The notes under the pieces: generated by a model
Told to the model about the DNA's origin: nothing
The model's database searches: none
What the model saw: the letters and a program-made list of their open reading frames with translations, nothing else
Translations under genes and position numbers: made by a program
Shown here: in pieces, positions 5,630 to 8,300 of the stretch
Position numbering within the stretch: the stretch's first letter is position 1
How the letters are laid out: each line of letters begins with the position of its first letter
Source of the DNA: Candidatus Hermodarchaeota archaeon
GTDB lineage: Archaea; Asgardarchaeota; Hermodarchaeia; Hermodarchaeales; Hermodarchaeaceae
Direction of reading: 5' to 3'
Length of the DNA stretch: 15,583 nucleotides
Assembly: GCA_016840065.1 (NCBI GenBank)
Contig: JAEOTB010000038.1
Span: 1 to 15,583, forward strand

Positions 5630-7561
5630 CTATTTGTAGTGTTGTTCATAGAACTGCTTGATTTCTTCTGGGGTTGGTAGTGAACAGCGTTCCCATACGT
5701 GGATGACTTCTTCTAGTTCCTTCTCTCCTTGTTGTCCCCTAAAGAGTTCAGATAGATGCTGGGTTCGTTCTTGGATATCTCGTTTGCACAAATCAAGGTA
5801 CACCTCGGCACTGTAGTATTTCAGGGGATTGAACCTTTCAGCATACCCCTTCATCCCATGTTCCTTCTCAATCTCTTCTGGCGAGGGAAGTAAGTAGCCT
5901 TCACCGAAGACAGGGTGAGGAATCCACGTCTTTATTCGGCGGCTCTCTACCAGTTCCACTAAGCGCTTGGTGTCTTCTACTCTGATTTTTTCGCCTAACC
6001 CATGGTAGACTGGTTTGCCCTGCCCATCGAGGGATGCTTTACCTGTGACCTTATCGATTTTAGGAATTGGTTGTCCCTGTTCGTCGAGGCGGCGGCGTTG
6101 TTTGCCCTTGAAGTCGTGTTCACCGACATAACCTGAGTTGACAATAGCAAAGACTAGATTGCCACCCTCTATCCTAGAGTTCGCGTATTGACCTAACCCC
6201 ATCTCTGAATACACTTTGTGTTTTAGTAGTGCTTGATGGGCCTGCTCTCGTACCATAAAGTCTGTGGCAGCATAGGAGCGGACCCTGGTGCCGGGGATTT
6301 TTCCGCCGATGGCTGAGGTGATGATGGTTTCGCATCCTGAGTCTAGGGCTACCGCCATGGCAGGATCAGTGATACGGATTAGGGGTTGGAAGATGTCGAA
6401 GCGCCGGAAGGAGAGCATCTCGGTTTTGAGCCACTTATCCGTTCCTGGCTCCCAGTCCGGATTCAGTGCATCGAACTTGAAGATGAATCGACCGTTGGTT
6501 GTTCCTGATTTCTCATAGCGAGTACACTGAAGGGAGCCCACCTTCTCTCCTGTAATGGGGCAGGGGACGCGAACTGGATGTCCCTTAACCTCCATCATTT
6601 TGTACTCTATGCCTTCACAGTCGATGTTCTGGGCGAGAACTACTTCACGCGTGCCGTCTGGACGCTTCTCCTTGGATTTCATCAGTCCTGGCCATTCAGG
6701 GCTTGCGGAATCCAATCCTTCACTCTTGGCATAAGACGCTGCCTCTAATCCAATCACTTGCACCTTCTCGACCCGACCACTACCGTTGGGTATTGGCAGC
6801 CCTAAGCATGCGTCGTCTTGGTGCAGCTGAGGACCAACAGTCAGGGTCGTTTTGCCTGTACCGGATAACCCCTTGAGAACCCGAGTTTCAGTACATCCCG
6901 CATGGTAGGAAACGAGTCCTTGTGCTTCGCCTCGGTTCCATACTAGCGTGAGGTTTGGTTTTTTGAAGGCTCCTCCGAAATAATCCACGCGCAGGCTCAT
7001 CACTCGTCTGTGGTCTTCATCCATTCTGGTCATGTCATAGAGGGTGAGGGGCTCATCGGGGTCGAATTCTGGCCAGAAGCTGCGGATTTCTTCAATGACA
7101 TAATCGGGTAACCGCTCCTGCACAATATAGTTCCAGCACTGAACATCCATTCCTTCCTCTGGTGGATAGACCATTAGTTTGCCAAACCAGCCAATGTATG
7201 CGGTGTGCGGGTTTTCCAAGCTTATGATGATACGTAGACCTGTCTTGTATTCCGCTTCACCTTGAATTCCTTCAAGGACCAGTACTTTTGTACTCTTGAG
7301 ATATCTCTGGATGACCTCAAAGAGCTTTAAGCCGATTTCTCGGTCGAAGACCCTCTGCCCCTTACCTAGCCGGTAACCTTTAGGGGGGATGAAAAAGGCG
7401 CGGTCAGGTCGGCGACCTGGCTGCGTGTTCCCGAACAAGTATTGTCCATCCGCTGTCAGAACATAATATGGTTTCAGGATTTCCCTGAACCAGTCGTGAT
7501 CAGGATTTCGAGTGACATTCTTTGCTTCAAAATGAAGGTCGTCTTCTATATGGATTGACAT
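5630..7561 (-). CDS. pckA: Divergent phosphoenolpyruvate carboxykinase (ATP-type family)
   Basis: PEPCK-ATP motifs in the expected order: YFGGAFKK (cf. YGGEMKK), SYHAGC (catalytic His), GLSGTGKTTLT (P-loop), QDD (kinase-2), EAASYAK (cf. EGGCYAK), TTNGR (cf. TENTR). Confidence 0.8.
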   Translation of the reverse strand: MSIHIEDDLHFEAKNVTRNPDHDWFREILKPYYVLTADGQYLFGNTQPGRRPDRAFFIPPKGYRLGKGQRVFDREIGLKLFEVIQRYLKSTKVLVLEGIQGEAEYKTGLRIIISLENPHTAYIGWFGKLMVYPPEEGMDVQCWNYIVQERLPDYVIEEIRSFWPEFDPDEPLTLYDMTRMDEDHRRVMSLRVDYFGGAFKKPNLTLVWNRGEAQGLVSYHAGCTETRVLKGLSGTGKTTLTVGPQLHQDDACLGLPIPNGSGRVEKVQVIGLEAASYAKSEGLDSASPEWPGLMKSKEKRPDGTREVVLAQNIDCEGIEYKMMEVKGHPVRVPCPITGEKVGSLQCTRYEKSGTTNGRFIFKFDALNPDWEPGTDKWLKTEMLSFRRFDIFQPLIRITDPAMAVALDSGCETIITSAIGGKIPGTRVRSYAATDFMVREQAHQALLKHKVYSEMGLGQYANSRIEGGNLVFAIVNSGYVGEHDFKGKQRRRLDEQGQPIPKIDKVTGKASLDGQGKPVYHGLGEKIRVEDTKRLVELVESRRIKTWIPHPVFGEGYLLPSPEEIEKEHGMKGYAERFNPLKYYSAEVYLDLCKRDIQERTQHLSELFRGQQGEKELEEVIHVWERCSLPTPEEIKQFYEQHYK

Positions 7562-7734
7562 TCTAGCATGTACCCCACTCTACAGCGCTTAGGCTTTTCA
7601 TCTAAATCAAGCAGGATTGATGCCCTGCGTCTCCCCGTCCTTTTATCCTCCCCTTTAATTCCTTTTGTAGTTCGAGACATTCTTCTTCGAACTCTCCAAC
7701 AATCTTAAGTACCAGTTAGAGATTGGGGGAATCA

Positions 7735-7779
7735 AGCGGGTGGGATTCGCACCGTGCTCCGCTAATCAAATAAATCCCG
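7735..7779 (+). promoter_or_regulatory. Candidate pseudoknotted cis-regulatory RNA (riboswitch-like) in the queT 5' leader
   Basis: P1 AGCGGG/TCCGCT, loop TGGGATT pairing with downstream AATCCCG, and A-rich linker AATCAAATA. It starts about 24 nt after a TATA-like TTAAGTA (7705-7711). Confidence 0.45.
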
Positions 7780-7799
7780 GGCTGCGAGTTGTATTGCAA

Positions 7800-8300
7800 A
7801 TGAATCAAGCAAAATTTAATCCTCTCCAGGCTATTGCCCTTACAGCAATAATGGCGGCATTATATGCCGCAGTTACCATTGTCCTCGGACCAATCGCCTT
7901 TTTGCCACTAATCAATCTACGAATTTCAGATGTCCTTCTACCTTTCCCATACATACTAGGATGGCCGATGGCTGTTGCGCTCTTCCTCGGATGCGCAGTT
8001 GCGAATATTTTCGGAGGGCTAGGACTCCTTGATATCGTTCTTGGAAGTCTCCTCAATCTTACTGCTGGTGTGCTGGTCATGAACAGGAAGACCTGCCCTC
8101 ATTGGGCTCTTGCTTGGCTTTACCCGACACTAATAGTTGGTCTTGGTGTCCCCGCATACCTACAATTCCTAATATACCTGCCCTACATAGCAATATTCCC
8201 TGAGATCCTGGCAAGTACCGCATTGTGGTCTGCCATCGGTGTTATCGTCATGCAGGCGGTAGAAAGGGCTTTACCGGATGTATTTCCTCCTGAGAAATAA
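7800..8300 (+). CDS. queT: QueT-family (ECF S-component-like) membrane protein, putative 7-deazaguanine precursor transporter
   Basis: About 5 hydrophobic segments. N-terminal AIMAALYAAVT..L.PIAF...NLRISD.L, followed by LFLGCAVANIFG.LG.LDI.LGSL, is typical of QueT. ATG 7800 is preferred over GTG 7740 because the family-like sequence starts there and 7740 lies inside a structured leader. Confidence 0.82.
   Translation: MNQAKFNPLQAIALTAIMAALYAAVTIVLGPIAFLPLINLRISDVLLPFPYILGWPMAVALFLGCAVANIFGGLGLLDIVLGSLLNLTAGVLVMNRKTCPHWALAWLYPTLIVGLGVPAYLQFLIYLPYIAIFPEILASTALWSAIGVIVMQAVERALPDVFPPEK

Follow-up and report, generated by a model that had tools for sequence, protein, structure and literature searches.

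A preliminary description of a stretch of DNA from a Hermodarchaeota archaeon raised the question of whether the leader of an archaeal queT gene holds a 7-deazaguanine riboswitch resembling the bacterial preQ1-I class. Our comparative analysis supports a candidate archaeal 7-deazaguanine riboswitch, a variant or new class, by conservation, covariation and gene context, with its ligand predicted. The window (the whole stretch analysed, 15,583 nt) encodes UvrB, a PEP-carboxykinase-like protein, QueT, an acyl-CoA ligase-like protein, TrpRS and others. The leader's gene is queT, as first described: positions 7800–8300 (forward strand) encode a 166-aa ECF-type S component for 7-deazaguanine precursors (PF06177, 83 bits, E = 2.6e-23). 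QueT is a predicted ECF S component often found under preQ1 riboswitches (PMC5372724). Divergent from queT, positions 5630–7561 (reverse strand) encode the 643-aa PEP-carboxykinase-like protein, itself a divergent sequence with a weak PEPCK_ATP match (27 bits) and an NCBIfam score below cut-off.

The queT leader in this genome is 65 bases long (7735–7799), with the ATG at 7800, and opens with a short helix, P1. An imperfect TATA-like box at 7703–7711 (forward strand), located from the sequence and by homolog comparison, lies 33 nt upstream of P1, and across 161 homologs TATA-like hexamers peak 30–36 nt upstream of P1, with an AT fraction of 0.86 at −33. This clustering places the start of the element at the 5′ end of the transcript, in agreement with the preliminary description, with a predicted transcription start near 7733–7734. 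The downstream edge of the element falls 8–10 nt short of the start codon. Translation from a GTG at 7740, raised earlier as an alternative start, was rejected, as just 3 of 17 family members keep an open frame from there to the start codon.

The element (7735–7791) precedes queT in all 16 of the host-family genomes that have the gene, from 18 genomes in total, and occupies the same place in three other Asgard families. Its wider spread takes in Asgard, Bathyarchaeia, Nitrososphaeria and Methanomethylicia, and a motif-first search of GTDB, using the commoner form as the pattern, returned at least 120 records, nearly all from these groups. Among the matches listed, the next gene was queT in 110 cases, queE in 4 and queC in 1, four ends were too short, and one match preceded an unassigned protein followed by queC and queT. 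All 116 evaluable loci among the matches listed therefore lead into queT, queE or queC, and the RNA precedes three unrelated 7-deazaguanine-pathway protein families and nothing else; the QueE-like genes scored best on QueE models yet below cut-off, and QueC scored above it. Searched with a covariance model, 151 Asgard genomes yielded 27 strong matches, one per genome and each directly before queT, and 151 Thermoproteota genomes yielded 28, again one per genome and 28 of 28 directly before a QueT match. In Thermoproteota the motif is patchy: queT occurs in 74 of the 151 genomes, and 40 other queT leaders returned no motif even with filters off. Matches on viral contigs, and nine of ten relaxed metagenome matches, were due to chance. 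The unassigned protein (277 aa; L063:5727–6557, reverse strand) has hydrophobic stretches and no Pfam or NCBIfam match, and is a candidate new 7-deazaguanine transporter.

Comparison of queT upstream regions from related archaea, the check recommended at the outset, found the element conserved and both the P1 flank and a second helix, P2, covarying. P1 forms as originally drawn, between AGCGGG at 7735–7740 and 7758–7763 (both forward strand), with five Watson–Crick pairs and an inner G–U. The core pairs, fixed by the search pattern that yielded at least 120 of the copies, are invariant and therefore lack covariation. By contrast, 157 of 164 copies keep the P1 flanking pair, through six pair types, including GC, AU, UA, CG and GU, with two-sided changes in 56 cells compared with 23 after shuffling (kinship ignored) and with G–U favoured over A–C by 12 to 3. 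The inner G7740–U7758 pair proposed earlier is also supported by comparison of copies, as the sole variant at that G in a metagenome scan (L275) is a natural G-to-A change that keeps the pair as A–U. Pairing of G7740 with a loop-3 C or with base 7775 is ruled out because 7775 is C, U or A and the G-to-A variant retains U7758.

Loop 1 (7741–7744, forward strand) begins with U7741, a candidate ligand-pocket base that is invariant in gene-first and model-found copies; the preliminary description correctly noted a U after the P1 5′ strand but counted it twice, as an unpaired base and as the first base of P2. Loop 2 is the single base 7757 (forward strand), at the position of the preQ1-I specificity C, where the reported C is present in this copy but is replaced in most homologs (U in 150, C in 13 and A in 1 of 164 copies; U in 20 and A in 1 of the model-found set). 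The A-rich tail lies where it was first placed, as loop 3 (7764–7777, forward strand), and comprises an AAA at 7772–7774 conserved among homologs, the variable 7775 and an invariant CC at 7776–7777, two further candidate pocket bases. In all, about 15 near-invariant bases, shared by two phyla, cluster where the helices meet, and U7741, C7776 and C7777 are invariant without a structural explanation; one of C7776 and C7777 may read the guanine-like face of the ligand. Aligned in one register, the copies give the consensus N-GCGG-G-U-(variable loop 1 + anti-SD)-G-H-U-CCGC-N′-(A-rich)-AAA-H-CC-C-(P2 3′ strand with SD).

Which helix forms P2 separates the element from its first description. The 7-bp complementarity 7741–7747/7773–7779, originally taken as P2, exists, and its GGG/CCC is invariant within the host family, but the conserved helix instead pairs the anti-Shine–Dalgarno (anti-SD) strand 7745–7756, with G7754 bulged and G7756 invariant, with 7778–7789, where C7782 is bulged and the strand overlaps the Shine–Dalgarno (SD) site (both forward strand). 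The register first drawn shows no compensatory change in the family, where A7744–U7775 is broken in 8 of 17 members, and outside the family its positions 3, 5, 6 and 7 pair in just 4–23% of 147 copies. Duplex energy is −11.2 kcal/mol for the conserved P2 against −7.9 kcal/mol for the earlier one, and among 29 distinct sequence types P2 strands paired with their own partners at −10.5 kcal/mol compared with −8.0 ± 0.4 kcal/mol after swapping, a value reached in 0 of 2,000 swaps (kinship ignored). Lineages replace the two strands jointly: CCUCC/GGAGG in most, UCGCA/UGCGA here, GUCUC/GAGAC in L093 and UUCCGAC/GUCGGAA in L209. Where the common form has CC next to the junction, the host family has U/A and a bulged G, with a matching extra G on the 3′ side, and in L013 the U7755–G7779 pair has become U–A. 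Covariation within the family is too sparse to separate the two P2 models by a shuffle test, so the choice rests on the wider set. As the helix 7741–7747/7773–7779 overlaps the conserved P2, it may, speculatively, be a family-specific alternative formed without ligand.

P1 and P2 cross and both covary, so that the alignment predicts an H-type pseudoknot. In the single sequence, a crossing pair of 6- and 7-bp helices is equalled in 23 of 600 shuffles, which is mildly unusual, and folding z-scores of 0 to +1 are not significant; as judged from the aligned copies, the pseudoknot is beyond chance by conservation rather than by single-sequence folding. A nested model gives P2 pair probabilities of about 0.9 without ligand. 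The 5-bp hairpin described as abutting the ATG (7783–7787/7794–7798) is present but not conserved beyond the genus, and was rejected as an element: 0–3 of its 5 pairs are kept in 14 relatives, and its 5′ arm is the true P2 3′ strand.

The P2 3′ strand also carries the expression platform. SD matches of at least 5 contiguous bases fall within it in 144 of 164 copies; the SD-like site is usually GAGGUK in the host family and GGAGGUG in other phyla. Here the site is GAGUUG (7786–7791, forward strand), among the weakest with 3 contiguous matches, in what is a divergent lineage variant of the motif. SD strength was scored against the general archaeal consensus, because a search of the assembly did not turn up the host's own 16S 3′ end. 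Given the weak site, control here may partly use steric blocking, which is documented for one preQ1-I riboswitch (PMC10018353). An inner hairpin competing for the anti-SD strand is better than shuffled in 129 of 164 copies overall and is absent in the host family (gain −4.9 versus −6.9 shuffled). The leader thus holds a conserved structured RNA, tied to one pathway and equipped with an expression platform, and we regard it as a real conserved cis-regulatory RNA with near certainty.

What the RNA senses is a separate matter. Rather than by the small molecule itself, the same switch could be read by unmodified tRNA or by a protein, for example arcTGT, one of the Que enzymes or an RNA-binding repressor; this would account equally well for the gene context and for SD sequestration, and protein-binding leaders can also be conserved across phyla. 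However, near-invariant unpaired junction bases over two phyla in a compact H-type fold appear typical of metabolite aptamers, the downstream open reading frames of the motif-first matches listed include no regulator gene that accompanies the motif, and no tRNA-like shape was found, ARAGORN returning no tRNA or tRNA fragment. We therefore consider a protein or tRNA reader unlikely and a metabolite-binding riboswitch quite probable.

The archaeosine pathway of the host family points to a ligand. Its sole TGT is the archaeosine enzyme TgtA/arcTGT (15 of 18 genomes; TIGR00432 above cut-off); a TGT was not found in the 84% complete assembly of this genome, and full-length QueC, QueF and bacterial Tgt were not found in the host family. 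With arcTGT present and these three not found, the family must salvage its precursor; among the Asgard genomes sampled, the families with a full QueC are ones that lack this QueT. preQ0 is the precursor from which archaea make archaeosine, and its salvage by them has been predicted (PMC5372724). For these reasons preQ0 is the first-candidate ligand, and we think it probable that the element is a preQ0-responsive translation-OFF switch. The archaeosine base, CDG, preQ1 or guanine could take the place of preQ0. Neither ArcS nor QueF was found in the host family, so finished archaeosine base may be imported and it or CDG could be the true ligand, and queT–queC operons (19 loci among the at least 120 matches listed; 12 of 28 in another set) suggest CDG salvage elsewhere. 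Yet preQ0 is the end product of QueE and QueC, which suits a repression of both genes, a preQ1 ligand requires QueF and bacterial Tgt, neither of which was found, and no purine-pathway gene follows the motif among the matches listed; a ligand other than preQ0 is accordingly improbable. As a separate observation, families f1, f2 and f12 (for example L151, L152, G019 and G029) have arcTGT, and full ArcS, QueF and QueC were not found in them, near-complete genomes included; archaeosine may be completed by another route there, or preQ0 may be left in the tRNA.

We compared the element with the known preQ1 riboswitch classes. An Rfam search at E up to 10 of the window and six homolog loci, canonical copies included, returned no preQ1-I, preQ1-II or preQ1-III match and no other relevant match. 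preQ1-III (RF02680) is a pseudoknot of about 100 nt and five helices before queT; the archaeal element shares the pseudoknot and the gene but has about 55 nt and two helices. preQ1-II (the COG4708 or queT motif, RF01054), a translation-OFF class of Lactobacillales, carries C–U just past its first stem and has a loop 3 that contains a hairpin. Like it, the archaeal element precedes queT, has an anti-SD strand immediately upstream of the first stem's 3′ strand that pairs extensively with the SD, and is predicted to switch translation off; unlike it, loop 1 starts with U-G/A rather than CU, loop 3 is a short A-rich strand without a hairpin, and sequence similarity is absent. The reference bases in preQ1-I of the Thermoanaerobacter tengcongensis (Tte) type (RF00522) are G5–C16, U6 and the loop-2 C15, which forms a Watson–Crick pair with the ligand (PMC6445138). 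Likeness to this class extends to a small H-type pseudoknot, a P1 of 5–6 bp followed by U, an A-rich loop 3, SD sequestration in stem 2 and control of queT and queC. The differences are that the equivalent of the conserved C15 is U, C or A, that the equivalent of Tte A29, the last base of loop 3, is C, with an invariant CC ending the loop before the G–C pair that opens P2, that loop 2 is one base, and that P2 is 8–12 bp with a full anti-SD and the inner P1 pair is G–U, all in an archaeal RNA. Judged by these resemblances, its predicted behaviour is that of a translation-OFF preQ1 riboswitch, and it resembles preQ1-II in topology and preQ1-I in size.

The preQ1-I-like label did not hold. A divergent member of that class, with 7741–7747/7773–7779 as P2 and C7757 pairing the ligand, gains from the alignment of P1, the following U, C7757 and the A-rich tail with the Tte bases (PMC6445138) and from the family-invariant GGG/CCC. 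However, 151 of 164 copies, three host-family members among them, have U or A in place of C7757, the required helix lacks compensatory change and fails outside the family, and Rfam gave no preQ1 match; such a reading is very improbable, and since the specificity C is not conserved the element is, on alignment evidence, not preQ1-I. Weaker still is a DNA operator just past the promoter, or a constitutive 5′-stabilising or translation-damping structure without sensing, for although the element starts at the predicted transcription start and P2 can form ligand-free, the inverted arms are spaced by a P1 loop of 14–27 nt, unlike a DNA operator, the P1 flank keeps G–U over A–C, unpaired bases are invariant and the motif is confined to one pathway's genes.

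We therefore return to a riboswitch, probably a 7-deazaguanine-responsive, translation-OFF member of a new class, as the reading that best fits the comparative data. Weighing against it are the ability of P2 to form ligand-free, the weak SD and the TGT not found in this assembly, and the 40 Thermoproteota queT leaders that lack the motif. The whole queT 5′ leader would be one compact riboswitch, its transcript starting a few bases before P1. P1 would fold first, its loop carrying the anti-SD strand, which would then pair with the SD-bearing 3′ strand to complete the pseudoknot, while the A-rich loop 3 would cross the P1 minor groove. A 7-deazaguanine, most likely preQ0, may bind at the P1/P2 junction formed by G7740–U7758, U7741, G7756–C7778, C7776 and C7777; bound ligand would lock P2 and block 30S binding, and plentiful precursor would leave the transporter (or QueE and QueC in other archaea) untranslated. 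Without ligand, the anti-SD strand would be held by the hairpin inside the P1 loop in most archaea and, speculatively, by the helix 7741–7747/7773–7779 in the host family. Somewhat more guardedly, we favour a fourth, archaea-specific 7-deazaguanine aptamer class for preQ0 (or the archaeosine base), with a loop-3 cytidine pocket replacing the loop-2 C. In Asgard archaea and Thermoproteota alike, such a class would act on translation to control how archaeosine precursors are taken up and made, and it may be the first archaea-native riboswitch class.

To our knowledge, few riboswitches are known in archaea, and we found no description of an archaeal 7-deazaguanine riboswitch or of this motif in the non-subscription literature searched. 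Riboswitches have been described as primarily bacterial (PMC10018353). If preQ0 binds, the element would represent a new aptamer fold, show how archaeosine supply is regulated and strengthen the case that QueT salvages preQ0 in archaea, and it would show that the closest relatives of eukaryotes use riboswitches acting on the SD. At 55 nt and with a named candidate ligand, the RNA lends itself to a cheap in vitro test, and the host-family variant, with its extra bulge, loop-2 C and weak SD, can serve as a natural control in working out which bases matter.

Several individual loci merit separate mention. Motif-less queT-like genes in three Asgard loci (L021, L025 and L027) have in common two spaced TACGTA palindromes, which lie about 30 bases ahead of the start and adjoin a small divergent open reading frame; the pair is possibly a protein-repressor operator in the riboswitch's stead. 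Two records titled Acidiferrales and Krumholzibacteriaceae (L109 and L110; G154 and G155) have the motif and queT in genomes of 1.0–1.3 Mb, and as these encode TBP they are probably mislabelled archaeal bins. In L211 and L212, AA replaces the two G after the junction C, leaving a single junction G–C pair and a separate anti-SD helix, which makes them useful minimal constructs. The shortest copy (L024:1901–1954, reverse strand), with a P1 loop of 14 nt, comes from a complete 1.4 Mb Asgard genome and is a good candidate for crystallisation.
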